From Spirochaetia bacterium (GTDB lineage Bacteria; Spirochaetota; Spirochaetia; DSM-2461), in assembly GCA_963666985.2 (NCBI GenBank), contig CAXXIA010000001.1:224001-288000 (forward strand): 64,000 nucleotides of DNA, in the 5' to 3' direction. The position numbers and the translations under genes were made by a program. The notes beneath the pieces were generated by a model. It worked only from the letters and a program-made list of their open reading frames with translations, ran no database searches and was not told the origin of the DNA. Positions 2,715-41,806 of this stretch are shown here, piece after piece. Each line of letters opens with the position of its first letter. Within the stretch, counting starts at the first letter, position 1.

Positions 2715-2795
2715 ATGAAACAAATATTTGACATGGTTACATAGCCGGTATAGTATGAATGCCGATGAGAGAAACCGCTTACATATATATATCAT
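2715..2795 (+). promoter_or_regulatory. sigma70 promoter of TRAP-1 operon with shared -35 box and LacI-type operator
   Basis: TTGACA(2728-2733)-17 bp-TAGTAT(2751-2756); operator GAGAAACCGCTTACAT-ATATA-TATCAT at 2769-2795. Confidence 0.8.
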
Positions 2796-2985
2796 TAAGT
2801 CTTCTCTTCCGCTGCCGGATCGACGTGTCCGAAAGGCGGATGTCGGTTGACGGCAAAAAGCAATGGAAAAGACGTCGGCTCGGAATAACGGAATAAGCTT
2901 TTGTTTTATGGTGAAAAGTATAATTATCCCTGTTCTATGAAGGGGAAATTGTATAAAAAAAAACTCAAAAGGAAGAGGAGCAAAA

Positions 2986-4035
2986 ATGAAAAAAGGACTT
3001 TACATCACACTCGCATTGGTTCTTGTTTTCGCGTTTTTAACGGGTTGTGATAATAAGAAGGCTGAGGATACGTCTGATAAGGAGAAAAAGGTAAATCTTA
3101 CATTCGCCATGTATCTGCCTGATTTTGACGCCAGCACCAAGGACTGTGTTAAATACCTTGAAATGATCAAGGAAGCGACCGGCGGAACCGTTGATTACAC
3201 CTTGTATGCCGGCAGTCAGTTGTGTGCCGCCAACGAAGAACTTGACGCCGTGAGAAGCGGACTGGCCGATGTTGCTTTTTTCCCGGTTGCTTACGGCTCC
3301 GGCAACTTGCCTGAAAGCTTCCTTATGGAATATCCCGGCGTCAAATTTGTCAACGGAAAAGCCGCCTCCTATACCGTTATGGACTGGTTCAATCAGGTCC
3401 GACCCGAGGAACTCTCCGACTTCAAGCTTCTGTTTGCGCTGGGGCAGGGCAACGGCTGCGTTATGACGACCTTCCCTGTTGAAAAATTTGAGGATTTGGC
3501 CGGACATCAGATCCGTTCGGGCGACTCTCAGGCTCCCATTATTACGGCTTACGGAGCCACCCCGACCGTTATGGTGTTCTCCGAGGTTTATGAAGGTTTA
3601 AGAACAGGCGTTGTCGAGGGATTCTACGGGCTGGCTTGTGCCGGCAACAGTGTTAAGCTTTATGAAGTTACAGATTACGCCGTTAAAGATCCTTACTACA
3701 TGGGAACCTATATCATGGTTATGAATCAGGATGTCTGGAATTCTCTCTCTGAAGATCAGCAGACAGCAATCACAGAGACGACCGCCACCGCTTTTGAAGA
3801 GTTTCTCGCCGCCGGCAGAGATGCCGACGCGCAGGTTGCATACGACAATTTTAAAGCCAACGGCCTGACGGTCGTAGATTTTGATCAGGAAAACCTTGAG
3901 AAAATGATCGGTGCTTCCGGCTATTTGCAGGAAGATTATGCCGCCGGCCTTGATGCGCAGGGTTTTGACGGCACGGGCAACCTTGAGCTCTTCAAGAAGC
4001 TTGCGGAAAAGTACAACGCTGAATATGCCGACTGA
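2986..4035 (+). CDS. dctP: TRAP transporter substrate-binding lipoprotein
   Basis: Lipobox LTGC; GHQIRS with carboxylate-binding Arg; EVYEGLRTGVVEG; upstream of dctQM. Confidence 0.9.
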   Translation: MKKGLYITLALVLVFAFLTGCDNKKAEDTSDKEKKVNLTFAMYLPDFDASTKDCVKYLEMIKEATGGTVDYTLYAGSQLCAANEELDAVRSGLADVAFFPVAYGSGNLPESFLMEYPGVKFVNGKAASYTVMDWFNQVRPEELSDFKLLFALGQGNGCVMTTFPVEKFEDLAGHQIRSGDSQAPIITAYGATPTVMVFSEVYEGLRTGVVEGFYGLACAGNSVKLYEVTDYAVKDPYYMGTYIMVMNQDVWNSLSEDQQTAITETTATAFEEFLAAGRDADAQVAYDNFKANGLTVVDFDQENLEKMIGASGYLQEDYAAGLDAQGFDGTGNLELFKKLAEKYNAEYAD

Positions 4036-4211
4036 TTTCTGAGAAAGTAATTAATCTATACGGCGTCTGATATTACGCTCACCGGGGCGTCCCAGCGTTT
4101 CGGTGAGTCTTGATTATTGGTTTGCATATCTTAGCAAACGCAAAATATAACTTACCATATCATATGTTGTATGTTATGCCTCGACTTTGAGGCGAGAGAG
4201 GTTGCGGCAAA

Positions 4212-4760
4212 ATGAAAAAATTTGTCTCAATGTTTTCCATGATGACCTCATGGTTAGCAAAGCTATCGGGAATCTTATTGTTTCTTATAAGCATTCTTGT
4301 ATGCGCCCATGTCATACTGCGCGGATTCTTTAACGCCGGTATACTCGGAACGTATGAATTAGTGCAATACGGTATGCTTGTCATTGTCTCGCTGACGCTT
4401 GCGGAAAACGAATTGACGGGCGGCAATATCATCGTCAATTTCGTTCTGGATAAAATGAAGCCTCGCACGGCCAGCGTTATCAGCATCATTATGTATTTTA
4501 TTACAATCATTTTTATGTCATACGTTCTTTACAATCAGGTCGGTATGATAGGAAGGAAGCTGGCCGACGGCTCAGTAACAGGTACGTTGGGCATACCTCA
4601 CTGGATTCTCGTCATCCTAATCTGCATCGGGCTTTTCTTCTTTGTCATCGCTTTTATCATCAGAGTCTACAACATGATTATAAATCACGGAAATATCGAG
4701 AATAAAAAGCTCTCTCGTGATGAAATAGCGGCCAATACCGAAATTAAATCCGAGTTTTAA
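4212..4760 (+). CDS. dctQ: TRAP transporter small permease
   Basis: Four TM helices; lies between dctP and dctM. Confidence 0.85.
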   Translation: MKKFVSMFSMMTSWLAKLSGILLFLISILVCAHVILRGFFNAGILGTYELVQYGMLVIVSLTLAENELTGGNIIVNFVLDKMKPRTASVISIIMYFITIIFMSYVLYNQVGMIGRKLADGSVTGTLGIPHWILVILICIGLFFFVIAFIIRVYNMIINHGNIENKKLSRDEIAANTEIKSEF

Positions 4761-4778
4761 GGAAGGGAAAAAATCGAT

Positions 4779-6092
4779 ATGGACCCTGTAACAATAGGCA
4801 TTTTGATGCTTATCGGATTTGTTGTTTTTATGTTTCTCGGCCTCCCAGTTCCGATCTCAATGATGCTTTTTTCCGTTGTGGGAATGGTTTTAATAAAATC
4901 ACCCGCCGCCGCTTTTCAGGCGGTCGCTTCGGATATCTTCATAAACTTTGCGTCTTATACGCTTACGGTTGCGCCTATATTCGGCCTTATGGGATTTTTA
5001 GCCAGTTATTCGGGTATAGGAGAAAGCCTGTTTAACGCCGCCGACAAATTTATAGGTCATAAGCGAGGCGGTATCGCTTCTTCCGTTCAGGTAGCCAGCG
5101 CCATTTTCGGCGCCATCTGCGGCTCCATTCCCGCCACGATGGGTACGATGGTTACCGTCGCTTTGCCTGAAATGGAAAAGCGTCATTATAAACCGAGTCT
5201 TTCAACCGCCGCTATCGCCGCCGGTTCCTCGCTGGCCGTACTGATTCCGCCCAGCGCCACGATGATCATCTATGGCGTTACCGCGGAGGAATCCATAGGC
5301 AGGCTGTTTATGGCCGGCGTCTTTCCCGGCGTTCTCCTGATGTTATTCCAGATTGCCGCGATCTATATCGTTGTTAAACGGCATCCCGAATATGCGCCCA
5401 TGTCGGAAAAATCCACCTGGGCGGAACGCTGGAACGCGATTCTCAAGGGCGGACTTTTAGAGGTTATCATCATTTTCCTGCTGTCGATCGGCGGTATGTT
5501 CATCGGCTGGTTTACTCCGACCGAAGCTGCGTCCGTCGGAGCCATGGGCATGCTGATTATCGGCCTTGTTGAGCGGAAAATTAATTGGCAGAAGCTTATG
5601 ACCTGCCTTGTCGCTTCCGCCAAACTTGCCGCCATGGTTTTCTTCATAATCACCTGCGGTACACTGTTCGGCCGTATGTTCACGCTTTCCACGATTCCCT
5701 CGGCATTGGCGAACTTCGTAACAACACTCAATGTGGCTCCATGGGTTCTCATGGGCATTATCCTTCTGCTTTATTTTGTGCTGGGTATGTTTATAGACGG
5801 CATAGCGATCATTCTGATTACCGTCCCTATTTTTACGCCCATTTTGAGCGGTCTTGGCTACGATGCCGTCTGGTACGGCGTTCTGATCGTTTTGGTTCTC
5901 TGCCTCGGCGGCCTAACACCGCCAGTCGGACTCAACTGTTTCTATATGAAGGGATTTGCCAAGCATGTTCCGCTTTCCACGATTTTTTCAGGCGTTTGGC
6001 CGTTCGTCTTCTCGATTCTCCTGGCGATGATTGTCATCATGCTCTTTCCGGGGCTGGCCACATGGCTGCCGACGGCTCTTTACGGGGTTTGA
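4779..6092 (+). CDS. dctM: TRAP transporter large permease
   Basis: LIPPS, FTPTEAA and LTPPVGLN motifs; ~12 TM. Confidence 0.95.
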   Translation: MDPVTIGILMLIGFVVFMFLGLPVPISMMLFSVVGMVLIKSPAAAFQAVASDIFINFASYTLTVAPIFGLMGFLASYSGIGESLFNAADKFIGHKRGGIASSVQVASAIFGAICGSIPATMGTMVTVALPEMEKRHYKPSLSTAAIAAGSSLAVLIPPSATMIIYGVTAEESIGRLFMAGVFPGVLLMLFQIAAIYIVVKRHPEYAPMSEKSTWAERWNAILKGGLLEVIIIFLLSIGGMFIGWFTPTEAASVGAMGMLIIGLVERKINWQKLMTCLVASAKLAAMVFFIITCGTLFGRMFTLSTIPSALANFVTTLNVAPWVLMGIILLLYFVLGMFIDGIAIILITVPIFTPILSGLGYDAVWYGVLIVLVLCLGGLTPPVGLNCFYMKGFAKHVPLSTIFSGVWPFVFSILLAMIVIMLFPGLATWLPTALYGV

Positions 6093-6410: not shown

Positions 6411-7928
6411 TTACACTGTAAGCAGCTCAAAGCCCAGTATTTTACCAAGCCTGACCATTTGATTAAAACAGTCTCCGTAGACCAGCGGCGTGTGGTTGCC
6501 AACTTGGCTTAATTTATCGAAAAAATCATCGGAATCAACAACCTGGAAAATAACTCCCTCGGTACAATTCTGTTTGTCATAGCCAATACCGCAGACCACA
6601 GTCCCTCTGGCAATGAAAAGCTTGCCGCAGGTGGGATCGATTCGACACATGGTGATAGGTTGTCCTTTGTCTTGGTTGAAGTTATAGCGTATGGTTGCTC
6701 CCCAGCCGCTATAGGCAAACGAACGTATCGCATAGGAACCGTTAGGTTTATCGAATCCTTTCAATTTCCGATTGGGAACCGAATGCCAGGTAAGAACCAG
6801 GTTTTCCATATTTTGAAGCTTTTTCTCCACCTCTTTTTCATCAAAATTACCCATCTCATTGTTTTTGATCGGATTGGTAATGGTGTTCCCCATGTAAGGA
6901 GCGGATCGAGCCGTATTCGACAGCATTACCATGGAAAGGAGAGCCGGGATATCATATTCACAGGAGGAGGGGATACCATTTTCATTATTCAGCGAATGGT
7001 TGAGGCAGAACGTAAACTTTTCCTCATTGAATCTTCTGGTGGCGCAGATATCGAAACAGGGAGCGGTAAAGGCGTTGCAGCCGGTTTTTTCCATCAATTT
7101 GTTGATAAGGTAATGGGCTTTCAGTGAGGGATAGACATTCTCGGGCGTCATATCACATTCCTCTGCGCCTTCAATAAACTCATTCGTCAGTCTTTTGATT
7201 TTTGTTTCGTCTGTATCGTTTATGTTGGGCTCATCTTTTCCGGGAGCGGTCGGGTTTTCACCGCTTGGAACATTATGAAGCTGGTCGAAAAACTCATGAA
7301 TATTATAATAAATGAAGCGCACGCCTAATTTGTCACTGACATCATCCAGGGACAGAAAGGCGTCGATCATGCCCGGAGCCCTGCCTGAATTAAGACGGTT
7401 GAACGCCAGAACCCTGGTTTGAGAAAGAGCTTTGCGAACCCTGAGCGCTTTAATAACATCAACAGCATCGTCTATGGTCTGACAGGGATAAACTTCATAT
7501 CCCCTGGCCAGCAGTGAAGCCGTAGATACGGTGTTAAGGCATCTGCCCAGAACGATCATCGGTTTTTTATATTTCCGGGGGAATTCCAACAGTAAATCCG
7601 TTACGGCGCCCTTAAAAATGTACAGGTCAACCTGATCGCTGTCTTTTCCCACCAAATCGAGATCGGCATCGGTTACCAGGAAACTTTCATCATACTGAAA
7701 ATGAATCGGTTCCAGGATATTGGCTTCATCAGTCGGAACCGCGCTCATAACACTCTCTATAAATGATTTATGTTTTTCGTCGTTTGCCCGTAAATCGTGT
7801 TCCTTTTTCAGCTTTTCACCCTCTTCAAAGCGGCAGGGCCCTTCAAATACGTAATTGTGGTACAGGCTGAGCGTTACCGGTCTGACATTGAGTTTGATCC
7901 CGAGGGTTGTGTTGATTTTAAAATCCAT
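6411..7928 (-). CDS. L-fucose/L-arabinose isomerase-like protein (FucI/AraA superfamily)
   Basis: GIPSSCEYD, WHSVP and C-terminal GNHTPLVYG metal-binding motifs; start placed at ATG 7928 after AAAGGA RBS (ORF track starts at 8051). Confidence 0.7.
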   Translation of the reverse strand: MDFKINTTLGIKLNVRPVTLSLYHNYVFEGPCRFEEGEKLKKEHDLRANDEKHKSFIESVMSAVPTDEANILEPIHFQYDESFLVTDADLDLVGKDSDQVDLYIFKGAVTDLLLEFPRKYKKPMIVLGRCLNTVSTASLLARGYEVYPCQTIDDAVDVIKALRVRKALSQTRVLAFNRLNSGRAPGMIDAFLSLDDVSDKLGVRFIYYNIHEFFDQLHNVPSGENPTAPGKDEPNINDTDETKIKRLTNEFIEGAEECDMTPENVYPSLKAHYLINKLMEKTGCNAFTAPCFDICATRRFNEEKFTFCLNHSLNNENGIPSSCEYDIPALLSMVMLSNTARSAPYMGNTITNPIKNNEMGNFDEKEVEKKLQNMENLVLTWHSVPNRKLKGFDKPNGSYAIRSFAYSGWGATIRYNFNQDKGQPITMCRIDPTCGKLFIARGTVVCGIGYDKQNCTEGVIFQVVDSDDFFDKLSQVGNHTPLVYGDCFNQMVRLGKILGFELLTV

Positions 7929-8093
7929 ATTTTTTCCTTTTACATTTTGGGGATGATAAGCAGCAAGCAAAGCGAGGTAAAATCCAAGCTTTTTTAATTT
8001 ATCTCCTCCATGTGCTTTCTTTTGGCGGGAGTCCATTTTTTTAAGTGTCACATTTTCTGAATCTCATAAATTATTTCAGGTTATTAATAGTTT

Positions 8094-8173
8094 ATGATAA
8101 ATAAATGTAAGCGTTATCTCTTATATCCTGCATATTGTACTCCTTTTCCCGTTATGTCAATCAATTGTTACAT
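8094..8173 (-). promoter_or_regulatory. Promoter/operator of the isomerase gene
   Basis: Minus strand ATGTAACAATTGATTGACAT (8173-8154); TACAAT (8139-8134, spacer only 15 bp); operator GAGATAACGCTTACAT-TTATT-TATCAT (8120-8094). Confidence 0.7.
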
Positions 8174-8731: not shown

Positions 8732-8801
8732 CGGAAGCAATTGCTTGACTTCCAATTTGAACAAGTATAGAATCAGGGAAGCGCTTACATAATAGTATCA
8801 T
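8732..8801 (+). promoter_or_regulatory. sigma70 promoter/operator of the OYE1-AOR1 operon
   Basis: TTGACT(8745-8750)-17 bp-TAGAAT(8768-8773); operator AGGGAAGCGCTTACAT-AATAG-TATCAT at 8775-8801. Confidence 0.8.
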
Positions 8802-8973
8802 AAATTGTAGCGGCAAGCTGAAAAGCTTTAATCATATTAAAATGATGAGAAATCAAACAGCGGCTTTTATGGACGCGGCCTGTCGCTGTTTTAAGGCCTG
8901 ATTCGTCCTTATGACAGATTTATGAATGGCCCGTTTCAATCGGCACCGAAAGGTATTGGAGAAGAAAACCATA

Positions 8974-10938
8974 ATGGGAAAATTTGATCATGTGCTGTCA
9001 CCGTTTACAATCGGCAATGTTAAGCTGAAGAACAGGATTGAGCTGGCTCCTGCCTGTTACATGCTCGCCAGTCACGACGGGTATGTTACGCGGGAAATGG
9101 TTGCCTATTACCAGAATCTGGCGCGCGGCGGCGCCGGGATTATTACCATCGGTGAGTCTCCGATCGATCTTGAGTATGCCAGCGGCCATGAATTTCAGCT
9201 GAATCTGAACGATCCCAAGGTGATTAACGGCCTGAGCGTTATAGCCGAGAACGTTCATCGCTATGGAGCCAAGCTGTCGATAGAGATGACGCATTGCGGC
9301 CGTTACGTACTGAACAACAAGCAGACCATCGGCCCGAGCAATATCCCTGCTGAGATGGAAATACTCAAGGCAAGAAGGGAAGGCCGAAAGGTGAGACAAG
9401 TGATCGAGATGGACCAGGATATGATCGACAGAGTCGTCGAGCATTATGCCATCGCGGCCCATAACTGTCAGAGAGCAGGCTTGGAAATGATTATGATTCA
9501 TGCGGCTCACGGACATCTCATCCCCCAGTTCTTATCACCGATGACCAATAAACGGACGGACCGCTACGGCGGGAGCCTCGAAAACAGGGCGAGATTTGCC
9601 GTCGAGATTCTTAATGCCATTCGGGCCAGGGTTGGAAACAAGCTGGCGATTGAATGGCGTATCAGTGCCAACGAGCTTGTACCCGACGGACTGGTTGAAG
9701 AGGATACCATCGAATTCGTAAAGCTTATTGAAGACAAAATCGATTTGCTGCATGTTTCGGCGGGTCTTTTGAATGAGTCTCGCGTTATCCCTCATATGAT
9801 TCAGCCGACATATTTCCCGCATTGCTACAATGTGCACCGTGCCGAGAAGCTGAAAAAGGCTCTGAAGATACCGGTCGCTGCGATTGGGTCCATACACGAT
9901 ATGAGCGAGGCCGAGGAGGTTGTCGCCACGGGAAAGGCCGACATCGTTGCCATGGCCAGGGCCATCCTCGTGGATCCCGAGATTGTGAATAAAGCCAGAG
10001 CGGGTCTGGAAGAAGATATACGGCCTTGCTTGCGCTGCCATAATTGCAACAAATTGACGGCTGCTTTTTATCCGATTCGCTGCGCGGTTAATCCTATTCT
10101 GGGCCGAGAGTTGACATATATCCCGCTGGGTAAAGCCGAGACGAAGAAAAAGGTTGTAATCGTCGGCGGCGGCCCCGGCGGCATGCAGGCGGCGCTGACG
10201 GCCTCCCAAAGAGGACACGATGTTGTCCTGTTTGAAAAAAACGACAAACTCGGCGGTAATCTGCTTTTGGCGGCGGGCCTTAAAATCAAGGCGGATATGA
10301 GAGAATATCTGGCTTGGCTGATCCGTCAGGCTCAAAAAGCCGAAGGTGTTCTCTTGAAGGTGGGAACGGAAGCCACCGTTGATAATGTGAAAGCCGAAAA
10401 GCCGGACGCCATTATCGTCGCGGCCGGTTCCGAACCCCTTATCCCGCGTATCCCCGGATTTGACGGTGAAAATGTCGTCTGGGTCGGTGATGTCGATGCC
10501 GGATGCGCCGCGGTCGGACAAAATGTCGTTATTGCGGGAGGCGGCGCAACGGGTGCCGAGGCGGCACTTCAACTGGCCAAGGACGGCCATAATGTAACGA
10601 TGATCGATATGCTTGATTTTGGTACGCTGACTCCCGAATACCCCAGAGGACTTTTATTCCTGCTGGAGGATTATAAGGTTGATATGCGATTTGGCGTCAA
10701 GCTTGAGGAAATTACCGAGAAAGGCGTTACGGTTCTTGATTCCAAATGGAATCGGGTTGAGATTCCGGCGGATACGGTTGTCCTCTCCTTCGGATTTAAG
10801 CCGCGTACGGCGATGGTTGAAGCGTTTATGGCTTTGGAATCGCCCGTTACAAGGGTTTACCCGGTCGGCGACTGCCTGAAACCGCAGAACATCAAGGATG
10901 CCGTCCACGGTGGGTTCAACACGGCGGTGGAAATTTAA
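8974..10938 (+). CDS. NAD(P)H:flavin oxidoreductase, OYE/enoate reductase (FadH/BaiCD-like) family with FMN, 4Fe-4S and FAD
   Basis: LKNRI..AP, HAAHGHL.QFLSP, RTDRYGGSLENRARF, CLRCHNC-x11-C, GGGPGG Rossmann; start placed at ATG 8974 after GGAG. Confidence 0.9.
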   Translation: MGKFDHVLSPFTIGNVKLKNRIELAPACYMLASHDGYVTREMVAYYQNLARGGAGIITIGESPIDLEYASGHEFQLNLNDPKVINGLSVIAENVHRYGAKLSIEMTHCGRYVLNNKQTIGPSNIPAEMEILKARREGRKVRQVIEMDQDMIDRVVEHYAIAAHNCQRAGLEMIMIHAAHGHLIPQFLSPMTNKRTDRYGGSLENRARFAVEILNAIRARVGNKLAIEWRISANELVPDGLVEEDTIEFVKLIEDKIDLLHVSAGLLNESRVIPHMIQPTYFPHCYNVHRAEKLKKALKIPVAAIGSIHDMSEAEEVVATGKADIVAMARAILVDPEIVNKARAGLEEDIRPCLRCHNCNKLTAAFYPIRCAVNPILGRELTYIPLGKAETKKKVVIVGGGPGGMQAALTASQRGHDVVLFEKNDKLGGNLLLAAGLKIKADMREYLAWLIRQAQKAEGVLLKVGTEATVDNVKAEKPDAIIVAAGSEPLIPRIPGFDGENVVWVGDVDAGCAAVGQNVVIAGGGATGAEAALQLAKDGHNVTMIDMLDFGTLTPEYPRGLLFLLEDYKVDMRFGVKLEEITEKGVTVLDSKWNRVEIPADTVVLSFGFKPRTAMVEAFMALESPVTRVYPVGDCLKPQNIKDAVHGGFNTAVEI

Positions 10939-32796: not shown

Positions 32797-34656
32797 GTGA
32801 AGCCCGTTATCGCAGTGATGAGCTATGGTGAATTGACATGTATTGTAGAGAAAAATAAATATAAGTTTTTAGAAAAAGTTGATATAAAAATAATCGATTC
32901 TCTGCTTTCGGATGCAATAAAAACAGCTCAGGAGATGGAAGAAAAGCGGGAAGCGGATGTTTTTGTCTGCTCGGGGAATTCCCGTTTATCACGTTTTGTA
33001 AGCAATCCTTTTATTGAAATCAGAGCTACCGGTTATGATTTGCTTATAGCTCTGAAAAAGGCAAGGGAATATTCTGATCGGGTTGTAATCATGGTGCATG
33101 CTGATAATCGCATCTGTTATTTGGATGAGATTTCGGACATGTTTTCCATTTCCATAGTCCCGCTGACTTATAATAACAATGATGAAATCAGAGAAGTCTT
33201 GTCCAAACTGGTCCTTGACGGCATTAATAATGTAATAGGATCCGGTATTGTCGTGGAAATTGGAAGAGAGCTCGGAATCAACTCGACTCTGATTTATTCC
33301 GAGGATTCCGTGAGAACCGCTCTGGATACGGCAACCAATATTGCCCTTTCAAAAAAGGCGGAGACTGAAAAAGCCGAACGTTTTCGGAAGATAATGGATT
33401 TCTCTTATGAAGGTATCATCGCGACGGACGAGAACGGCATGGTTACGGTTATCAATCCTGCGGCCGAGAAGATACTGAAAATTAATAAAGAATCGATAAC
33501 CGGCAATCCCATACAGAATGTATTTTTGAATAACGAGTTTGAAGAAGTTATTAAAGAAGCAAAAAAGATAACCAACAGAATCCAGACGGTTGGAGATATT
33601 GAAATCCTGGGAAATATTGTTCCCTTTCTATTCAAAAATGAAATATCCGGTGCGGTCGCCACTTTTCAGAATTTCAATACGATACAGAAAGCGGAAGAAC
33701 AGATTAGAAAAAAACAGCACGAAAAGGGCCTTTTTGCCAAGTCCACGTTCAAAGATATACTCGGTCACAGTAATCCCGCAACCGAATGTAAAAGCCGGGC
33801 CTTTCTCTTTGCGAAAAGTGATTCGACTTTATTGATAACAGGAGAATCCGGAACAGGAAAAGAACTCTTCGCCCAGAGCATTCACAATGCGGGAAACAGG
33901 GCATTGAAGCCTTTTGTTGCCATAAACTGCCAGGCTCTGACCGATACTTTGCTGGAGAGTGAACTCTTCGGGTATGAAGACGGGGCTTTTACCGGAGCGA
34001 AGAAAGGCGGAAAGCCGGGTTTTTTTGAGCTTGCTCACAACGGTACCATTTTCCTCGATGAAATCGGAGAGATACCCCCCATGCTTCAATCCAGATTGTT
34101 GCGTGTTCTTGAAGAGCGGGAGGTTATGAGGATCGGAGGGAGTAAGATTATCCCCGTCAACATACGGGTTCTTGCGGCGACAAATGTAGACCTTCTTAAA
34201 AGAGTCTATCAGGGGAAATTTCGTCAGGACCTTTTCTACAGGCTGAATGTACTTGAACTTGATATTCCGCCTTTACGTATGAGGAAAAAAGATCTTCCTC
34301 TACTGGTTTCACGATTTCTCTCGGATTTCAGAAAAGATTTGAATGACGATGAGATAGCTGAAATTGCGAATAATCCGATGTTTTATTCTTACGATTGGCC
34401 AGGGAATATCCGAGAACTCAAAAATATTGTAGAGCGATTTGCCGTTTTATATGACACTACGATTTCCGCATCGGATCTGCTGGACAGTATTTTTTCGAAA
34501 CAGCTCCGTCATCGTTCTGTTGTAAGTGATGAATACACTGAAATTGCCCGTGTTCTGGATGAATTTAAGGGGAATAAAACCGAAGCGGCAAAACACCTCG
34601 GCATGAGCAGGACCACCTTGTGGAAAAAACTAAAGGAATATGCGTTCATTTCGTGA
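32797..34656 (+). CDS. PrpR-like sigma54-dependent activator (PrpR_N-PAS-AAA+-Fis HTH)
   Basis: GESGTGKE, ELFGYEDGAFTGA, FLDEIGE, WPGNIREL, LGMSRTTLWKK; GTG start with AGGAG RBS. Confidence 0.92.
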   Translation: MKPVIAVMSYGELTCIVEKNKYKFLEKVDIKIIDSLLSDAIKTAQEMEEKREADVFVCSGNSRLSRFVSNPFIEIRATGYDLLIALKKAREYSDRVVIMVHADNRICYLDEISDMFSISIVPLTYNNNDEIREVLSKLVLDGINNVIGSGIVVEIGRELGINSTLIYSEDSVRTALDTATNIALSKKAETEKAERFRKIMDFSYEGIIATDENGMVTVINPAAEKILKINKESITGNPIQNVFLNNEFEEVIKEAKKITNRIQTVGDIEILGNIVPFLFKNEISGAVATFQNFNTIQKAEEQIRKKQHEKGLFAKSTFKDILGHSNPATECKSRAFLFAKSDSTLLITGESGTGKELFAQSIHNAGNRALKPFVAINCQALTDTLLESELFGYEDGAFTGAKKGGKPGFFELAHNGTIFLDEIGEIPPMLQSRLLRVLEEREVMRIGGSKIIPVNIRVLAATNVDLLKRVYQGKFRQDLFYRLNVLELDIPPLRMRKKDLPLLVSRFLSDFRKDLNDDEIAEIANNPMFYSYDWPGNIRELKNIVERFAVLYDTTISASDLLDSIFSKQLRHRSVVSDEYTEIARVLDEFKGNKTEAAKHLGMSRTTLWKKLKEYAFIS

Positions 34657-34691
34657 ACGAAAATGAACAATGTCTGAACGATCGATAAACA
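34643..34691 (+). promoter_or_regulatory. Putative upstream activator sequences for the sigma54 activator
   Basis: Palindrome CGTTCA-N5-TGAACG, then TGAACA, TGAACG, TAAACA at 10-11 bp period. Confidence 0.55.
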
Positions 34692-34848
34692 ATAACAAAT
34701 TTTCTTCCGTTCCGGAATCCGAATCCGTTTCTCTTCACTTGTTTGTGAGGGCCTCAATTCATTACATAATGAGTAGAAAACCAAGAAAAAAAGTATTTAT
34801 ATAAGAAAGAAAACTTTTTTTAATGAATTATCCTTTGCTTCCTGTGTG

Positions 34849-34866
34849 TTGGTACGGTTCCTGCTT
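34849..34866 (+). promoter_or_regulatory. sigma54 -24/-12 promoter of block B operon
   Basis: TTGGTACGGTTCCTGCTT has GG-N10-GC spacing; preceded by an A/T tract; downstream of the activator gene. Confidence 0.8.
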
Positions 34867-34978
34867 TATTTCTTAAGTTATTCCAAAATATGATAAACCG
34901 GTATTTGAGATGTGAAGTCATTCCGTCTCAAGGTTATGGTTTCTGCCTATCCAAATGATCAGTTGGGATAAGGGGATT

Positions 34979-35559
34979 ATGAAAGAATTAAACCATGTTA
35001 TGTGTCCAATTTAAAATCGGAAACATAACTGAAAATAGAATCGAACTCACTCCTCTTTGTCCTATGCCGACATTGTTTGGCGGTTTTGTTGCACAGGAGA
35101 TGATAGGGTTTTGCAAAAAAACTCTCAGAGGTATTGTGAGGCTATTAATCATCGGTGAAAGCTTTTTTAATTCCGAGTATGAAAAAGATCATGAGCTTCA
35201 GCAGGCCAGAAGGGTAGAAAAGATAACGGTTCTCAGTGAGCTCAATTCCCAAATCCTATCAATCGAAAGGCAGAGAAAGCATCTGCCTATTCCGGCAGAA
35301 TACGGTGTGTTTTTCATTCCTGAAACGCACATGAAAGAAATCTATAAAAATGGTATCGCGGTAACGAATGCATCTGAACGGAAAATTGCGCTTGCCGTAG
35401 ATTCAATCATCATTTCTATTGGATTCACTTCACGTGAAAAAGCTGTTGAAAAAGCAATTGATAAAGCTTTTAACCTATACCCGGCGGTGACAGTTTTAAA
35501 CGGAAGACTCTATGAGGATAGAGATTCACGGAGGATTTGATACGGTTCCTAGAAACTGA
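34979..35559 (+). pseudogene. Frameshifted, internally deleted OYE-family oxidoreductase remnant
   Basis: MKELNHVMCP then frameshift to FKIGNITENRIELTP...IIGES (OYE1 N-terminus), joined to DSIIISIGF and, in another frame, IHGGFDT (OYE1 C-terminus). Confidence 0.8.
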
Positions 35560-35677
35560 TGAATAGAGTCGGGATTAAGAAACTTTTCAAAGGAGGTGCT
35601 CCGATTTTAAAGGATGTTTAATGGGTTGTGTAGCTACCTTTAATGATTCTAAACGCATAATGAATAAGGAGATGTAA

Positions 35678-36757
35678 ATGCGAAAAGTCAGTATGGTCCT
35701 AATGGTTTCTTTGTTTATGGCTTTTGCCGTTCTCAGCGGCTGTTCAAAGTCGGAATCGGAGGGTTCGGCTGAAGCTGCCGAAGTGAAGGCAGCGGATACT
35801 GTTGTTCTGAAGTTCAACAATTTCATGCCTGATGCAACACCACCGGCTCTTGCCTGTAAGGAAGCCTGTGAAATGATTGAAAAAAACTCGAACGGTGAAA
35901 TTCGGGTGGAACAATATTACGGAGGAAACCTGCTGTCCTTCGACGATTCCATCCAGGGCATTGCGAATGGTGTCGTTGATATCGGGCTGGTAACCCAGGC
36001 TCTTATCGATACCACATTTACTCTGAACCACGTTTTTACGAGACCGTTGGAAGTTACTCCCCCGGACAATGCCAGAACAACGAAAGCGTATCAGGAGCTT
36101 ATTAAGATTGTTCCCGAACTGAATGAAGAACTGGCGAAACAGGGTGTCAGGTGGCTGTCTATTCAGTCTCTGCCTTCTTACAATCTGCATACCGTAAAAG
36201 ATGTTATTAAAACTCCCGATCAGGTAGCGGGTATGAAGCTCGAAACTCAGGGCGGTGTTGAGTACTGGACAAGTCTTAAAGCTGCGGCAATGGTTTTGAA
36301 TCCGGCAGATAATTACATGTCTTTGGAAAGGGGTCTTGTAAAAGGTCAGGTAAGCCACTGGGCGTTATTAAATATTTACAAAACAGGCGAACTTCTTAAG
36401 ACGCACACCATCTTTGGTGAAGGTGATGGGGGGCTGTACTGCCCCGCTATGGGTTATTTCATCAATCTTGATACCTGGAACAGCCTCTCCTCGGAGCACC
36501 AGGTAATCATCGAAGACGCTTTCATTTTTGCATGTGACAAAACTGTTGAGTATGATGCCGCTCCGATTATCAATGAAAAGAAAGTTGCGGAAGAACGCGG
36601 AGATGACTTTGTCTATCTCACCGGTGATACTTTGCAGCCATGGATTGATGCGATGAAGCCATTGAACAAAGCGTGGATTGACGATCTGGAAAGCCAGGGA
36701 CTGGCGGCCCGGAAAGCTTATGGTGAATTGATGCGGTTACTGGAGAAATACAAGTAG
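35678..36757 (+). CDS. dctP: TRAP substrate-binding lipoprotein, copy 2
   Basis: Lipobox LSGC; YMSLERGLVKG; upstream of dctQM. Confidence 0.88.
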   Translation: MRKVSMVLMVSLFMAFAVLSGCSKSESEGSAEAAEVKAADTVVLKFNNFMPDATPPALACKEACEMIEKNSNGEIRVEQYYGGNLLSFDDSIQGIANGVVDIGLVTQALIDTTFTLNHVFTRPLEVTPPDNARTTKAYQELIKIVPELNEELAKQGVRWLSIQSLPSYNLHTVKDVIKTPDQVAGMKLETQGGVEYWTSLKAAAMVLNPADNYMSLERGLVKGQVSHWALLNIYKTGELLKTHTIFGEGDGGLYCPAMGYFINLDTWNSLSSEHQVIIEDAFIFACDKTVEYDAAPIINEKKVAEERGDDFVYLTGDTLQPWIDAMKPLNKAWIDDLESQGLAARKAYGELMRLLEKYK

Positions 36758-36866
36758 TAACAATATGGAGAACGGACAGACGGAAGAGAGCAAAATCGGC
36801 TTTAGTCTGTCCTTCTCCAAATAACCGACATGATTGGTTTTGGCCCTTAAAGTATGGAGGATCGAC

Positions 36867-37346
36867 ATGAAAAATGTCGTGAAAGTAATCGATTGGATTG
36901 TTGATAAAAGTATTTATCTTGGATGCACAGCTGTAGTTTTGATGATGATGACTACGGTTGTTGATGTCGTATTACGTTTTTTTAAGCATCCGCTGAAAGG
37001 CAGTATGGAAATAACGACTGCCCTTATGGTGTGCGTGGTTTTTTTTGGAATGGGACGGTGTTCTCTTCTGGATCTGCATATGAAAGTTGATATTTTTAAG
37101 AAATTTCCCTGGCTCGACAAGGTAAACAAGCTTATTACGACAGCCCTCTGTCTTATTATATGTTGGCAGACGATTATTCAGGCGTTTAAAGCGCAGTCTC
37201 TGAATTCAGTCAGCCAATTATTGAGAATACCCAAATATCCTTTTGTTTTTGTCGCCGCGTACGGTTTTCTGATTATCGCCGCGGCTTTGATTTCAGAATT
37301 CATCCATAACATCATAAGTCGCAAACAGCATGGGGGGGATGCGTGA
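36867..37346 (+). CDS. dctQ: TRAP small permease, copy 2
   Basis: VVDVVLRFF..P..GSMEI, HMKVDIF; GGAGG RBS before ATG 36867. Confidence 0.85.
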   Translation: MKNVVKVIDWIVDKSIYLGCTAVVLMMMTTVVDVVLRFFKHPLKGSMEITTALMVCVVFFGMGRCSLLDLHMKVDIFKKFPWLDKVNKLITTALCLIICWQTIIQAFKAQSLNSVSQLLRIPKYPFVFVAAYGFLIIAAALISEFIHNIISRKQHGGDA

Positions 37347-38650
37347 GCCCGGAAGTAATCGGAACGATTGGTTTAGTAATTCTTGTAATACTCCTTTTTT
37401 CACGAATGTGGATAGGAGCGACAATGCTGCTGGTAGGATTTCTCGGCTGCATTTTACTCGGAGGCTTCAAGTCCGCGGCAACCCTCATCGGTATGGTGCC
37501 CTACAGCGAAAGTGCCAGTTATACAATGGCATGCCTGCCTTTGTTTGTAATGATGGGACTAATTATATCCGTAACCGGTCTTGGAGGAGATCTCTACAAG
37601 GCCGCCAGTAATTGGATAGGGCATATGAAAGGCGGTCTGGCTATCGCTACCACTCTTGCCTGCGGCGTATTTGCCGCGGTCTGCGGCGACAGCATGACTT
37701 CGGCTGTAACCATGAGCAAAGTTGCCTTTCCCGAGATGAAAAAATATAAGTATGACGATGGTCTGGCGGCGAGTTGTATTACTGCCGGCGGTACGATCGG
37801 CATTCTTATTCCGCCGAGTGTCGGTTTTATTATTTACGGTCTTATCACAGAGCAATCGATTGGCAAACTGTTTATAGCAGGTGTTATTCCCGGAATACTT
37901 CAGGTTGTATTCTATATAGTAACAATCAGTGTCCTTTGTCACATAAATCCAAAGTTGAGTACGACGGCACCGAAAGTCAACATGAAAGAACGGGTCAGTT
38001 CCCTGAAGACGGTCTGGCCGGTGCTTGTTATTTTCATAGTAATTGTCGTTGGTATTTATGGAGGAATCGTTACTCCCACGGAGGCGGCTTCTCTTGGTGC
38101 TTTCACCGCTTTGGTAGTCGGTCTGGTATTGAAAAGATTATCGAAAGATAAATTACTCTATGCAGTGAATGAAGCCGTACAGACAACGGCAATGATTTTC
38201 TTTCTTGTAATCGGTGCCCATGTTTTTACCCGGTTTATGGCATACAGTCATCTCCCCGCATCAATTGGAGAGGGTGTTATTGGGTTAAATACGATTTACC
38301 ATGTGCCCCGTTTCGCAATCATGGCGGGAATCATTCTGATGTATATCCTGCTTGGCTGCATCATGGATGTCATGGCGGCTATTTTTCTGACCTTGCCTAT
38401 TATTTATCCGGTCATTATCGGCTTAGGTTACGACCCGATTTGGTTCGGCGTTATTATGGTCAGAGTAATGGAAATCGGAATGATAACACCGCCTTTTGGA
38501 TTGAATCTTTTTATCGTTACAAGGACGAGCGGTGTTCCTATTAAAACACTCTATAAGGGAATTATGCCGTTTATTACTGCGGATATAATACATGTAATTC
38601 TTCTTCTTATTATTCCTGAGCTATCCTTATTCCTGCCCGGATTAATGTAA
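37343..38650 (+). CDS. dctM: TRAP large permease, copy 2
   Basis: LIPPS, TPTEAA, ITPPFGLN. Confidence 0.95.
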   Translation: MSPEVIGTIGLVILVILLFSRMWIGATMLLVGFLGCILLGGFKSAATLIGMVPYSESASYTMACLPLFVMMGLIISVTGLGGDLYKAASNWIGHMKGGLAIATTLACGVFAAVCGDSMTSAVTMSKVAFPEMKKYKYDDGLAASCITAGGTIGILIPPSVGFIIYGLITEQSIGKLFIAGVIPGILQVVFYIVTISVLCHINPKLSTTAPKVNMKERVSSLKTVWPVLVIFIVIVVGIYGGIVTPTEAASLGAFTALVVGLVLKRLSKDKLLYAVNEAVQTTAMIFFLVIGAHVFTRFMAYSHLPASIGEGVIGLNTIYHVPRFAIMAGIILMYILLGCIMDVMAAIFLTLPIIYPVIIGLGYDPIWFGVIMVRVMEIGMITPPFGLNLFIVTRTSGVPIKTLYKGIMPFITADIIHVILLLIIPELSLFLPGLM

Positions 38651-38663
38651 AGATTCTGCAGTT

Positions 38664-38883
38664 ATGAACAATAACGTTTTAGAGGAAAACATATGTAAAT
38701 TAAAGGTGGATTGTACGAGCAAGGATTTTTCCCTTTTCAACGACAATCTTCCTGATAATCCGGTACTAAAAGAAAGAGTAATTCTTTCGAATTCTGGAAG
38801 GCTTCGTTCGGGCGGCATACGGCAGAACATCCGGGATAATTATGGATGGTCATGCATCCATCCTCTGCAATGGATTTCGGTGA
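38664..38883 (+). pseudogene. Internally deleted PrpF remnant
   Basis: CTSKDFSLFNDNLPDNPVLKERVILS matches PrpF N-terminal GTSKGIFLNENDLPQNPVQRDKAILS; in another frame RAAYGRTSGIIMDG matches C-terminal RVAYSRTARRIMEG; same position before leuC. Confidence 0.8.
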
Positions 38884-38919
38884 AGAAATCCTGATGAAAG
38901 GGGGAATGAGGTAGAGCTA

Positions 38920-40179
38920 ATGGGTATGACCATGACAGAGAAAATACTCGCCGATCATTCGGGACAGCGGGTTGTAAAGGCCGGAGATACCGTTACATGC
39001 AGAGTAGACCGGGCGGTCCTCCATGACATGTTTTTTTCCGTAGGCGGACAGGCGGACTTGTATGTCATGAAGAAGCTTTTCAATCCCGAAAGATGTGTCG
39101 TTGTAATGGATCATGCTGTTCCGGCACCAACGGTATATGATGCGGAAGCCGGGGTGAAAATTAGAAAATTTGTCGAACGCCATGGCATTAAACACTTTTT
39201 TGATGTTGGAAATCACGGTGTGATTCATCAGATCCTGGCGGAAAAGGGACTCGCCCTGCCGGGACAGCTTATAACCTGCGGAGATTCCCATACCATGGCT
39301 TCCGGAGCTTTTAACTGTGCCTCCCGCGGCATGGGACCGGTCGATATGGTCTATGTTTTTTGTATGGGAGAAACATGGTTCCAGGTCGGACCAACCATTC
39401 TCTATAACCTTACGGGAAAACTTTCCGACATGGTTACGGGAAAGGATATCTTCCTGTACATTGCCGGAACCTATGGCGAAGTAACAAATAAGAATGTCGA
39501 GTTCGGTGGGGCGGGTATTGAAAATCTTCCTTTATCGGAAAGACAGAGCATTACGACGATGTGTGCGGAAATAAACGCCGATTTTGCCGTTTTCCCCTTT
39601 GATCGGCAGGTGGAAGACTATCTGAAGAACCGGGCTGTGGAACCGTTCTCTCCGGTAAAAAGTGATCCGGATGCCGAATATGAAGATATCCGGACTATCG
39701 ATCTCGACAAAATGGAACCGTATGTCGCTCTTCCTCATTTTATTCCGGGAAATTGTAAACCCGTGAACGAAGTTGAAGGAATGAATATCAATCAAGCAAT
39801 CATTGGTTCCTGTTCCAACGGACGCCTTCAGGATCTGAAAACTGCCGCCAGGATTGTAAAGGGAAAAAAGATAGCTCAGGGTGTGAGATTGATTATAACT
39901 CCGGCATCTCAGGCGGTTTACCGTGAAGCAATCCAGGACGGCTGTATTACCACTCTTCTTGATGCGGGAGCTGTAATTACCAACCCGACCTGCGGGGCCT
40001 GTTACGGCGGACATATGGGATTGATCGGTACCGGTGAGCGCTGTTTGGCTACAACAACCAGAAATTTTAAAGGAAGAATGGGCAGCGCCGACAGCGAGGT
40101 TATGCTTGCTTCTCCGGCAACGGTAGCCGCTTCCGCGTTAACCGGCAAAATTACCGATCCCCGTCGGATTGTGCTTTAG
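38920..40179 (+). CDS. LeuC/DmdA-like hydratase large subunit, copy 2
   Basis: Close paralogue of 20197-21462; all three Fe-S Cys present. Confidence 0.9.
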   Translation: MGMTMTEKILADHSGQRVVKAGDTVTCRVDRAVLHDMFFSVGGQADLYVMKKLFNPERCVVVMDHAVPAPTVYDAEAGVKIRKFVERHGIKHFFDVGNHGVIHQILAEKGLALPGQLITCGDSHTMASGAFNCASRGMGPVDMVYVFCMGETWFQVGPTILYNLTGKLSDMVTGKDIFLYIAGTYGEVTNKNVEFGGAGIENLPLSERQSITTMCAEINADFAVFPFDRQVEDYLKNRAVEPFSPVKSDPDAEYEDIRTIDLDKMEPYVALPHFIPGNCKPVNEVEGMNINQAIIGSCSNGRLQDLKTAARIVKGKKIAQGVRLIITPASQAVYREAIQDGCITTLLDAGAVITNPTCGACYGGHMGLIGTGERCLATTTRNFKGRMGSADSEVMLASPATVAASALTGKITDPRRIVL

Positions 40180-40191
40180 CGAGGTGATGGA

Positions 40192-40683
40192 ATGGTAATA
40201 AAAGGAAAAGTATGGAAATTCGGAGATGATATCAATACGGATTTGATTTTTCCTCATTCGGCATTCCGGGTTCCAGCGGAGGAACAGATTAAATATGTTT
40301 TCAGCGGCAACCGACCCGGATGGGCGGATGAGGTAAAGCCGACGGACATTATTGTTTCGGGACGTAATTTCGGAACAGGGTCGAGCAGACCCGGCGCGGC
40401 ACTATTTAAACGTCTACAGCTTGGTGCCCTGGTTTCCGAAAGCATCAACGGTCTTTTTTTCCGAAACTGCATCAGCTACGGTCTTCCCGCACTGCAATGT
40501 GAGGGAGTGGCTGAAGCCTTTGAGGAAGGTGATGAAGCCGAGGTGAATTTGGAAGAAGGAACGGTTGAAAATTGCAGAACAGGAAAGGTCCTTCAGGGAA
40601 TGAAACTGTCGGGTTTGATGATTGATATCATCAAGCAGGGCGGAATTGAACAACTTTTACGAAAGAATGGGTCCATTGAGTAG
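40192..40683 (+). CDS. LeuD/DmdB-like hydratase small subunit, copy 2
   Basis: INTDLIFPHSAFRV identical to copy 1; NFGTGSSRPG. Confidence 0.9.
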   Translation: MVIKGKVWKFGDDINTDLIFPHSAFRVPAEEQIKYVFSGNRPGWADEVKPTDIIVSGRNFGTGSSRPGAALFKRLQLGALVSESINGLFFRNCISYGLPALQCEGVAEAFEEGDEAEVNLEEGTVENCRTGKVLQGMKLSGLMIDIIKQGGIEQLLRKNGSIE

Positions 40684-40912
40684 GGCATCATCATAAAAAA
40701 AACACCGGAAGGATTGCTCATAAGAAGCGGCTGTGATTATGGCTGCTCGCAGGGTATCCGGCAGCCATATGGTGAGAAAATGAGTAACGGAATCCCGATT
40801 TTTTTCTTGTCGAAAACTGTGGTGGACGCCGGATGATTATAGACGCCTTAGGGCTGATATTACGCGGCAATGAATAATTCAGAGATTTGGATATAAGGAG
40901 ACGTTAAGAGTT

Positions 40913-41722
40913 ATGAAAGGCATAGAATTATATGTTTTACGGAGCGGAATTATTACCGACATGCCGAAGGAAATGCTCATAAGGACCGGTGCGCCTGTAG
41001 ATCCGACGGATGTCGTACAGCTTCCGGTTCAGAGTTATGTGATCAAACATCCTGACGGCGTGATTCTTTATGATGCGGGTCACAGCAGGGAAGAACGTTA
41101 CTTTACTCCAACTCCGGAGAAAGCGAAACCGGCATGGTCCGTACCTGAAGAGGATGAGCTGCCGAACCAGCTTTCCAGGCTCGGAATTAATCCGAAAGAA
41201 GTAAAATGTGTTATCTGTTCCCATCTTCATATTGATCATACCGGCTATCTTGAGTATTTCACCAATGCCGAAATTATTACCAGTGAAGCGGAATTTGCCC
41301 ATATGGCCCAGATGCATGCTTTGGGAACGCTCGGCTATCCCTATGTGAATAAAGATTGGGAAGAATGGCTGAAAGCAAAACTGAACTGGCATCTCGTTGA
41401 AGATAACGAAGATGATATACAGCCTTTTAAGGGATTAAGGATATTCAATTTCGGTTCCGGTCATTCCTTCGGTATGCTCGGTCTTCTGGTGGAACTGGAA
41501 AAATATGGAAATGTTCTCTTGATTTCCGATGCTCTCTACTGCAGTGACAACTTGGGGCCGCCGGTAAAGGTTCCCGGATTTCTTGAAGATTACGACGGAT
41601 TTGTACAGACGGCGGAACGGATTGTAAGGCTGTCGAAACAGTACAACGCCGAAATTTGGTACGGACATGACATGGAGCAGTTTAAAGGTCTGACGCTCAT
41701 GGATGACGGCTTTTACAGCTGA
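40913..41722 (+). CDS. MBL-fold lactonase (AttM/AiiB-like), copy 2
   Basis: SHLHIDHTG, GHSFG, SDALY, YGHD. Confidence 0.85.
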   Translation: MKGIELYVLRSGIITDMPKEMLIRTGAPVDPTDVVQLPVQSYVIKHPDGVILYDAGHSREERYFTPTPEKAKPAWSVPEEDELPNQLSRLGINPKEVKCVICSHLHIDHTGYLEYFTNAEIITSEAEFAHMAQMHALGTLGYPYVNKDWEEWLKAKLNWHLVEDNEDDIQPFKGLRIFNFGSGHSFGMLGLLVELEKYGNVLLISDALYCSDNLGPPVKVPGFLEDYDGFVQTAERIVRLSKQYNAEIWYGHDMEQFKGLTLMDDGFYS

Positions 41723-41776
41723 TTTAGTGAAATTGTATATCTGCTGAAAAATTCAAGTGTGATATCCCGTAAATAG

Positions 41777-41806
41777 CTCCGGATGGATCGATCCATCCAT
41801 CCGGAG
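41777..41806. terminator. 12-bp perfect hairpin between convergent lactonase and MATE genes
   Basis: CTCCGGATGGAT-N6-ATCCATCCGGAG; no clear U-tract. Confidence 0.55.

Follow-up and report, generated by a model that had tools for sequence, protein, structure and literature searches.

The stretch of DNA analyzed here (the window) comprises 64,000 nucleotides, positions 224,001 to 288,000 of contig CAXXIA010000001.1, from a bacterium of the Spirochaetia whose FlaA protein scored above the family cut-off, in keeping with a spirochaete host, and it carries a large insertion of catabolic genes. The insertion of ~40 kb (2291 to 41974, strand not assigned) lies between a metallophosphoesterase gene (1118 to 2290) and a MATE gene (41975 to 43531), and its limits were set there because, of the 11 same-genus genomes with a MATE match, three (L261, L263, and L276) carry these two genes side by side and in the same orientation. 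A preliminary description had placed the island at 2715 to 41806; the insertion itself proved real, and its true limits lie farther out. No full-length orthologue of the aldehyde:ferredoxin oxidoreductases (AORs) of the island was found in 60 relatives, and contigs from two runs, which possibly represent the source sample and so are not independent, span inner junctions and the right junction. The island is a genuine, conserved cluster of catabolic type that has moved horizontally and in which known families stand in an undescribed arrangement.

Families were assigned by open reading frame (ORF) calling and by Pfam and NCBIfam scans of the 31 island ORFs of at least 80 amino acids. The left part of the island contains the following genes.

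2986 to 6092, plus strand: TRAP transport system 1, with DctP (2986 to 4035), DctQ (4212 to 4760), and DctM (4779 to 6092) (Pfam)
6411 to 8051, minus strand: FucI-fold-like protein, probable start at 7928 (ESM Atlas likeness, homologue names)
8926 to 10938, plus strand: OYE1, of the FMN/FAD/Fe-S ene-reductase family, with His at the usual Tyr position (Pfam, NCBIfam)
11049 to 13615, plus strand: ferredoxin 1 and AOR1, probable AOR1 start at 11543 (Pfam)
13612 to 14979, plus strand: MmgE1, an MmgE/PrpD protein without one carboxylate site (10 of 10 aligned orthologues)
15033 to 15821, plus strand: SDR1, NAD-type short-chain dehydrogenase (Pfam)
16034 to 17029, minus strand: LacI-family repressor (Pfam, NCBIfam; orthologues of 84 to 88% identity in four genomes)
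17530 to 18978, plus strand: MmgE2, apparently an epimerase-type MmgE/PrpD protein (residues; best PDB match, IDS epimerase)
19015 to 20178, plus strand: PrpF-family double-bond isomerase (closest solved relative, Mii, 3g7k, E=2e-110)
20197 to 22088, plus strand: LeuC1/LeuD1 Fe-S hydratase of a distinct subfamily (NCBIfam, motifs)
22150 to 23034, plus strand: C-C lyase of the ICL/PEP-mutase family, DMML/PDP-like (alignments)
23057 to 23788, plus strand: MBL1, AiiA-like lactonase fold (NCBIfam)
23841 to 26438, plus strand: ferredoxin 2 and AOR2 (Pfam, tree)
26487 to 26795, plus strand: ABM-domain protein (Pfam)
26846 to 28234, plus strand: MmgE3, catalytic Tyr replaced by Phe, dicarboxylate sites kept (7 of 7 aligned orthologues)
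28290 to 29057, plus strand: SDR2 (Pfam)
29096 to 29917, plus strand: FdhD sulfurtransferase-like accessory protein (Pfam, NCBIfam)
29997 to 31964, plus strand: OYE2, with Trp at the usual Tyr position (Pfam)

Every family named in the preliminary description was recovered within 2986 to 41722, and the absence it had reported of CoA ligases or transferases, thiolases, citrate synthase, kinases, and B12 mutases was borne out by the lack of any match to these families in the 31 scanned ORFs. Aldolases and sugar dehydratases were likewise absent from the island in the Pfam and NCBIfam scans. Both AORs possess AFOR_N and AFOR_C domains, the conserved cysteines, and a partner ferredoxin, as in the AOR/WOR family, and form a separate subfamily that scored below the YdhV cut-off. 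The three MmgE/PrpD paralogues are only 22 to 31% identical to each other. DctP1 retains the carboxylate-binding Arg position, and orthologues of TRAP1 (51 to 86% identity) occur in G061, G062, G105, and G064. No specific function was indicated by PDB searches with OYE2, AOR, and MBL1 or by NCBIfam scans of the SDRs.

Features beyond the first gene list were a deleted OYE remnant, a break in GC content at third codon positions (GC3) at ~32 kb, and four LacI-type operators, as follows.

2772 to 2784, plus strand: operator 1, ahead of TRAP1 (same site before DctP1 in L011, L012, and L196)
8105 to 8117, minus strand: operator 2, ahead of the FucI-like gene
8778 to 8790, plus strand: operator 3, ahead of operon A (same site in L019, L020, and L195)
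17435 to 17447, plus strand: operator 4, ahead of operon B (same site in L011, L012, L013, L091, and L195)

Since the 13-base pattern was drawn from these four sites themselves, its chance figure of 0.07 is no independent test; the independent check is that the operator recurs at orthologous positions in eight loci (L011, L012, L013, L019, L020, L091, L195, and L196). It was not seen in L015, L017, L056, L027, or L241 to L243. The whole genome contains 10 matches, 4 of which are the island sites, and none falls in the right part of the island (32797 to 41722). GC3 was 0.43 to 0.49 in this right part versus 0.56 to 0.67 in the core, with 0.49 for the FucI-like gene and a genome mean of 0.57, and three of the four genes measured in the right part were within the lowest 8% for codon fit. 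The features of the right part are given below.

32797 to 34656, plus strand: PrpR_N sigma-54 activator of the satellite module, GC3 0.43 (Pfam, NCBIfam)
34850 to 34864, plus strand: candidate sigma-54 promoter, plausible in position, from a pattern with 8 matches versus 11 expected by chance
34995 to 35540, plus strand: OYE1-type remnant (~35010 to 35480 matching), retaining N- and C-terminal ends only, with an internal deletion of ~440 amino acids
35678 to 38650, plus strand: TRAP system 2, its DctP without the Arg (Pfam)
38920 to 40683, plus strand: LeuC2/LeuD2, a paralogue of LeuC1/LeuD1 (63 to 64% identity) with the same active-site motifs
40913 to 41722, plus strand: MBL2, AhlS-like lactonase fold (NCBIfam; 46% homologues in L027 and L210)

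The whole 39 kb had been taken for a single pathway, and this view was not sustained, because the right 9 kb has no operator, a lower GC3, and a pseudogene. The island instead appears to be two units, namely, a left part of ~30 kb that forms a single LacI-type regulon and a low-GC satellite of ~9 kb on the right, which we propose was separately acquired, is decaying, and serves a related entry substrate. One contig of run X1 lacked a single base at 37093 and another at 37332, within the satellite TRAP genes; this is possibly an assembly error or a variant.

AOR-anchored scans yielded 80 genome loci and 80 metagenome loci. The core of the cluster was present in 13 other anaerobe genomes, 12 from Bacillota (57 to 89% identity) and 1 from Chloroflexota (a divergent variant, 36 to 64%), so that the co-occurrence suggested earlier as a check was indeed found. 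When genes were counted over these genomes in the fetched loci, LeuC and the lyase occurred in 13 of 13, an AOR as well as PrpF, LeuD, and MBL1 in 12, and MmgE2 in 11. The operons were in the same order, at 68 to 91% identity, in three Peptococcaceae metagenome-assembled genomes (MAGs) and one metagenome contig, synteny being complete at 70 to 91% in the Peptococcaceae MAGs; PrpF was not in place there, and a PrpF of 57 to 58% identity was located elsewhere. Rearranged versions were seen in Oscillospiraceae and Family XIII MAGs, a Papillibacter MAG, G105, G592, and a Dehalococcoidaceae MAG. The lyase, sought in 50 of the 68 first-listed loci (one per genome), had an orthologue of at least 57% identity in 11 of these 50 AOR-bearing genomes and in G592; it was scarce in group samples (1/401, 4/112, and 3/251), and at least 119 other lyase clusters were recorded at 60 to 89% identity. 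A FastTree tree placed AOR1 and AOR2 in distinct clades, and every one of the 10 members of the AOR2 clade was linked to the cluster. In G105 and G065, an Fe-S aldo-keto reductase and a cyclase-family hydrolase occupy the exact slot of ferredoxin 2 and AOR2, which fits a lactol-forming substrate, i.e., 1,4-related oxidation sites. The cluster likely came to this spirochaete from Bacillota.

Several further observations were made among these loci. A LysR gene divergent from PrpF in the Peptococcaceae MAGs (L209, L210, L212, and L242) resembles, by its N terminus, a LysR gene within the cluster of G592, a hint that the module may have a second lineage under LysR control. In the Dehalococcoidaceae variant (L027), the lyase retains a Dml-like Phe270 and LeuD is without the Arg, suggesting that this cluster may act on a smaller substrate. 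A wide AOR subfamily, 45 to 60% identical to the island AORs and accompanied by ferredoxin and SDR genes (L011 to L105), occurs in Sporobacter, Papillibacter, Acetobacterium, Syntrophaceticus, and Coriobacteriia. Genes resembling demethylases or dehydroxylases are often nearby, and the members of this subfamily are candidate aryl-aldehyde oxidoreductases. Glycyl radical enzymes near two clusters were not counted as part of the cluster, being only 29% alike.

The residues of the lower-branch enzymes bear on the chemistry. All characterized MmgE/PrpD substrates share a C4 1,4-dicarboxylate, according to PMC12290011, and the same source lists the residue roles. The set for IDS epimerase (H85, D/E88, H99, Y145, H150, K198, and K266) was compared with the three paralogues. 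MmgE2 retains every listed residue (the catalytic Tyr in 10 of 11 sequences), MmgE3 has Phe in place of this Tyr in 7 of 7 with its dicarboxylate sites intact, and MmgE1 has lost five of the seven residues in 10 of 10 (no H85, D88, K198, or Tyr, and Arg for H150), keeping H99 and K266. MmgE2 would thus be epimerase-type, MmgE3 a one-base eliminase type, and MmgE1 a monocarboxylate type. The catalytic loop of the lyase is intact and like that of DMML/PDP (KRCGH with the catalytic Cys, Mg-binding Asp/Glu, Arg156, and Glu186), and no succinate-binding Arg is kept. Comparison of 133 lyase orthologues with 17 Dml-like sequences showed Phe184, Ile234, and Pro236 in 132 to 133 of the former and in all of the latter, together with replacement of Dml Phe270 by Ser, Gly, or Ala, of Met267 mostly by Ala or Gly, and of Glu213 by Ile, Leu, or Tyr. 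We take positions 184, 234, and 236 to form the C2-methyl pocket and 241 and 270 to lie on the C3 side, as in the MICL, DMML, and PDP structures. With pocket sizes estimated from these alignments and presumed roles, the lyase is predicted to yield pyruvate and a larger, bulky acid. LeuC has an HDMFF-type and LeuD an SSRP-type motif, neither seen in DmdAB-like sequences, and PrpF keeps the catalytic Lys and Cys, the Asn beside the Cys being Leu in 10 of 10 cluster sequences. The cluster defines new subfamilies of AORs, lyases, LeuCD hydratases, and MmgE/PrpD proteins, the last including the form that lacks one carboxylate site.

The nearest known systems were weighed at this point, since the solved structures that match best are those of Mii, DMML/PDP, and PrpB-type lyases and a PrpR-like activator is present, as a rearranged nicotinate fermentation or methylcitrate cycle would have it. 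The lyase searches recovered true nicotinate clusters (L204 and L244 to L246) that carry Mo-hydroxylase, amidohydrolase, and B12 mutase genes, all of which are missing from the island. Relative to L204 and L244, the island lyase is 45% identical to Dml, the isomerase 50 to 51% to Mii, and the hydratase 29 to 35% to DmdAB, compared with 57 to 89% within the cluster family. The nicotinate Mo-hydroxylase, 6-hydroxynicotinate reductase, enamidase, and Hgd, all present in the control locus L204, were not found in the island; nor did tblastn with the L204 protein find a B12-dependent 2-methyleneglutarate mutase (Mgm) in the host genome. PrpB, PrpD, and PrpF equivalog scores fell short of their cut-offs (265/354, 54/458, and 281/441 bits), and citrate synthase is absent. 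The island enzymes are not orthologous to those of either pathway, and we regard such a rearrangement as extremely improbable. Nicotinate-type clusters (L204, L207, L244 to L246, and short loci among L216 to L236) were noted in two MAGs, one of Thermacetogenium and one of Family XIII, and in several members of the class to which G062 belongs; in L246, DmdAB was not in place.

Genomic context offered clues to the substrate class. In G592, the genes around PrpF-LeuCD-lyase and MmgE2-MBL1 encode four Mo enzymes and, with matches that all fall below their cut-offs, two DesA/LigM-like homologues, a corrinoid protein, and a vinylphenol-reductase-like flavoprotein. The best PDB match of the Mo enzyme after MBL1 is acetylene hydratase, which PMC7028382 gives as the nearest characterized relative of catechol dehydroxylases. 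The four Mo enzymes share 39 to 55% identity with six enzymes, five from Eggerthellaceae and one from Coriobacteriales. The G105 cluster adjoins transhydroxylase, PhlG-like hydrolase, cyclase-BKACE, and URO-D methyltransferase genes, which we take to be a phloroglucinol route, and URO-D-family genes adjoin the module in G066 and G064, so that polyphenol-type neighborhoods occur in four carriers from three lineages. Genes of the catechol dehydroxylase clade (E<=1e-100) were found in 7 of the 10 carriers searched and in the host versus 3/149 and 1/200 others of two carrier groups, an enrichment inflated by kinship, by MAG incompleteness, and by the fewer candidates scored in the background searches. 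The host also has genes resembling those for pyrogallol transhydroxylase, cyclase, BKACE, CoA-transferase, and catechol dehydroxylase (L253; L313, i.e., G000:C2 at ~2.69 to 2.71 Mb; L312 and L314), which to our knowledge are unusual among spirochaetes. The carriers appear to be polyphenol specialists, and this context favors a polyphenol-derived aryl substrate over the furan-, pyrone-, or pyridine-type compound suggested earlier.

All reactions of the proposed pathway come from family and residues. With confidence evenly balanced, we prefer the reading that the left 30 kb encodes a CoA-free oxidation of an aryl-bearing butane-1,4-diol or gamma-butyrolactone derived from plant polyphenols, with a lignan type as the best guess, to a substituted succinate, followed by Mii/DmdAB/Dml-like cleavage. 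TRAP1 would import the acid, and SDR1 and SDR2 with the two ferredoxin-AOR pairs would oxidize two CH2OH/CHO carbons to COOH, MBL1 opening a gamma-lactone formed on the way. MmgE1, with one carboxylate site, and MmgE3, of the one-base type, would beta-eliminate ether oxygen or water, and the arylidene, diene, or quinone methide so formed would be the substrate of the OYEs for reduction. MmgE2 would then epimerize the C3 center, PrpF shift the double bond from the itaconate to the maleate position, LeuCD hydrate it, and the lyase cut C2-C3 to give pyruvate and a bulky acid such as 3-arylpropionate, the cell gaining pyruvate and reduced ferredoxin. The gene order MmgE2-PrpF-LeuC-LeuD-lyase is the proposed reaction order. 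The earlier proposal of an undescribed, CoA-free route on free acids that ends in such an isomerase-hydratase-lyase branch is thereby supported. Lignans and beta-beta lignin dimers are the polyphenol class with a 2,3-disubstituted butane-1,4-diol or butyrolactone, and it is possible, though doubtful, that beta-beta lignans specifically are the substrate. Equally tentative is the joint claim that the island performs the first O2- and CoA-independent cleavage of the central C8-C8' bond of beta-beta lignans, lignin dimers, or mono-aryl lactone fragments of these, with the nicotinate lower branch redeployed on benzyl-substituted succinates, and that this capacity, after spreading through anaerobes specialized on polyphenols in termite guts and biogas reactors, was transferred to the spirochaete.

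The upper genes vary between carriers: G592 has no MmgE1, MmgE3, or close SDRs within 80 kb, the G105 cluster contains no AORs, and only AOR2 was seen in G067 and G068. Such variation, like the differing transporters and the Dml-like small pocket of the G072 variant, would be expected if a five-enzyme core (MBL1, MmgE2, PrpF, LeuCD, and lyase) were fed by exchangeable upper modules (AOR1/MmgE1/OYE1, AOR2/MmgE3/OYE2, aldo-keto reductase plus cyclase, and the satellite) acting on different compounds. We consider this multi-substrate funnel distinctly unlikely, given that both upper modules occur together, at high identity and under one operator, in the Peptococcaceae MAGs, G105, and the window and that many of the gaps fall at contig ends.

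Other observations weigh against an aryl-bearing substrate. Polar residues are conserved in the pocket of the lyase (Asp237 in 125 and Arg271 in 105 of the 133 orthologues), and in all 15 cluster LeuD sequences an Arg aligns with that of the homoaconitase YLRT motif, which we take to be a determinant of specificity; a third carboxylate or a polyol could accordingly occupy the place of the aryl group. LacI regulators sense sugars more often. DctP1 matched solved binding proteins weakly (best E, 7e-27), the ligands of these relatives being presumably aromatic. Three of the 10 carriers had no catechol dehydroxylase clade match, and the enrichment may reflect lifestyle instead of substrate. No URO-D, DesA-like (demethylase), or corrinoid match was found in the host, and Pfam and NCBIfam scans of the island revealed no Ber-like (fumarate-reductase-type) or PinZ-like (NmrA-like) gene; the L029 query gave no NmrA-like match in the host. 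An intact diaryl lignan, with the benzyl groups that it requires at both C2 and C3, would give arylpyruvate plus arylpropionate and conflicts with the methyl-sized C2 pocket. The pockets would suit a mono-aryl resinol lactone fragment, which would draw on the lactonase, SDR-AOR pairs, two eliminases, OYE, epimerase, PrpF, LeuCD, and lyase and give pyruvate and arylpropionate, provided that such fragments are naturally supplied in anoxic habitats.

The same C4-dicarboxylate funnel might instead receive a non-aromatic compound, a branched sugar-derived or ring-fission lactone acid of the paraconate, isosaccharinate, pyrone, or pyrrole-derived type, and release pyruvate and a hydroxy- or dicarboxylic acid. 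The LeuD Arg, the polar lyase pocket, and the LacI regulator would suit such a substrate, as would the basic residues near the MBL1 N terminus and the fact that, in this host, the shared operator also precedes the FucI-like gene; according to PMC9875883, a lactonase acting on paraconate has been described next to genes for itaconate. The polyphenol neighborhoods of the carriers, the hydrophobic substitutions in LeuC, PrpF, and lyase, the island's lack of a kinase, aldolase, or sugar dehydratase, and the restriction of the FucI-like gene described below make this alternative unlikely. Anaerobic degradation of pyridoxine (vitamin B6) or another pyridine, with two CH2OH groups oxidized via pyridoxolactones, ring reduction by OYE, and a nicotinate-like lower branch, would account for the two SDR-AOR pairs, the Mii-like isomerase, and two lactonases with weak 4-pyridoxolactonase matches. 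The pyridoxolactonase scores were 76 and 108 versus a cut-off of 325, the island has no amidohydrolase, deaminase, transaminase, or Mo-hydroxylase, and the context is that of polyphenols; we hold this route to be very improbable. Oxidation and cleavage of an aryl-bearing, polyphenol-derived compound is retained as the preferred reading.

The FucI-like gene had been read as a signal of a sugar substrate. Its protein had no Pfam or PDB match, including no Fucose_iso or AraA domain, and its label derives from an ESM Atlas score of 0.96 to a "putative fucose isomerase" cluster, a feature-level likeness, and from the source names of homologues. The gene was found in none of the 10 carriers searched, a search made with no positive control genome, and in none of the fetched loci of the 13 genomes, and as a sign of a sugar substrate it was rejected because these 10 carriers gave no match. 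Homologues occurred in 46 of 251 Eggerthellaceae genomes, often paired. Among 14 fetched loci from these related, nonindependent genomes (L297 to L310), a SufS-like cysteine desulfurase was nearby in 11 and full-length Mo-enzyme genes of the catechol dehydroxylase clade in 7, and PucR-type regulators also adjoined. A role as an accessory of Mo/W enzymes, like FdhD, seems as plausible as sugar isomerization, and the Eggerthellaceae family is possibly an unrecognized Mo-enzyme accessory or phenolic-modifying family. An exact 20-bp inverted copy links the promoter regions of the FucI-like gene (8154 to 8173) and operon B (17379 to 17398), suggesting that this gene may have been placed under a duplicated promoter.

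Outside the island, a 1,679-amino-acid ORF (43419 to 48458) holds apolipoprotein N-acyltransferase and alpha-amylase domains in a single frame and is either a fusion or run-together genes. In the open full-text literature, the scope of our search, no description of this cluster or of anaerobic cleavage of a lignan backbone was found. Should the substrate prove to be another, the AOR, MmgE/PrpD, LeuCD, and lyase subfamilies would still be new and would offer testable predictions of specificity.

Comparison with known systems places the island among several routes. It shares the PrpF, MmgE/PrpD, ICL-family lyase, and PrpR_N families with the 2-methylcitrate cycle (PrpR, PrpB, PrpC, PrpD, and AcnD-PrpF) but has no PrpC or PrpE, no family for 2-methylcitrate synthesis or propionyl-CoA supply among the ORFs scanned, and a lyase without the two Arg residues of the MICL-type 4iqd alignment. 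MmgE2 possesses all listed catalytic and carboxylate-binding residues of (S)-(R)-methylsuccinate isomerase and IDS epimerase; whereas the pseudomonad itaconate/methylsuccinate route goes on via CoA esters, the island has three divergent paralogues and no CoA enzymes. Gut lignan conversion (Ber, Glm, Cldh, and Edl) is similarly anoxic, oxidizes diol to lactone by SDR-type enzymes (Edl2 is an SDR according to bioRxiv 10.1101/357640), and has counterparts in the demethylase- and dehydroxylase-like genes of the carriers. Ber is of the fumarate reductase type, which the island does not have and which ruled out OYE as a Ber orthologue. As described, gut conversion stops at enterodiol/enterolactone with the backbone uncleaved, whereas cleavage is proposed for the island. 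Aerobic pinoresinol catabolism (PinZYXWVU of Novosphingobium rhizosphaerae LY; Pseudomonas SG-MS2) likewise converts CH2OH to carboxylate, opens the furan ring, and ends with C-C scission of a beta-beta dimer (PMC12997858). There, as in the described bacterial splitting of beta-beta dimers, the final steps depend on O2 through a dioxygenase, whereas the island families differ and the proposed scission is a retro-aldol-type lyase step. If true, an anaerobic lyase cut of such a backbone would extend the use of lignin-derived carbon by anoxic communities and give O2-free biocatalysts. The closest parallel is the lower branch of nicotinate fermentation in Eubacterium barkeri (Mii, DmdAB, and Dml), in which a PrpF-family isomerase, a LeuCD-type hydratase, and an ICL-family lyase likewise act on free acids and in which the Dml-like enzymes have methyl-pocket residues in common with the island lyase. 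The island differs in having no Ndh, Hnr, Ena, Hgd, or Mgm and in its family-specific pocket changes, and to this branch it adds a lactonase, three MmgE/PrpD proteins, SDR-AOR pairs, and OYEs.

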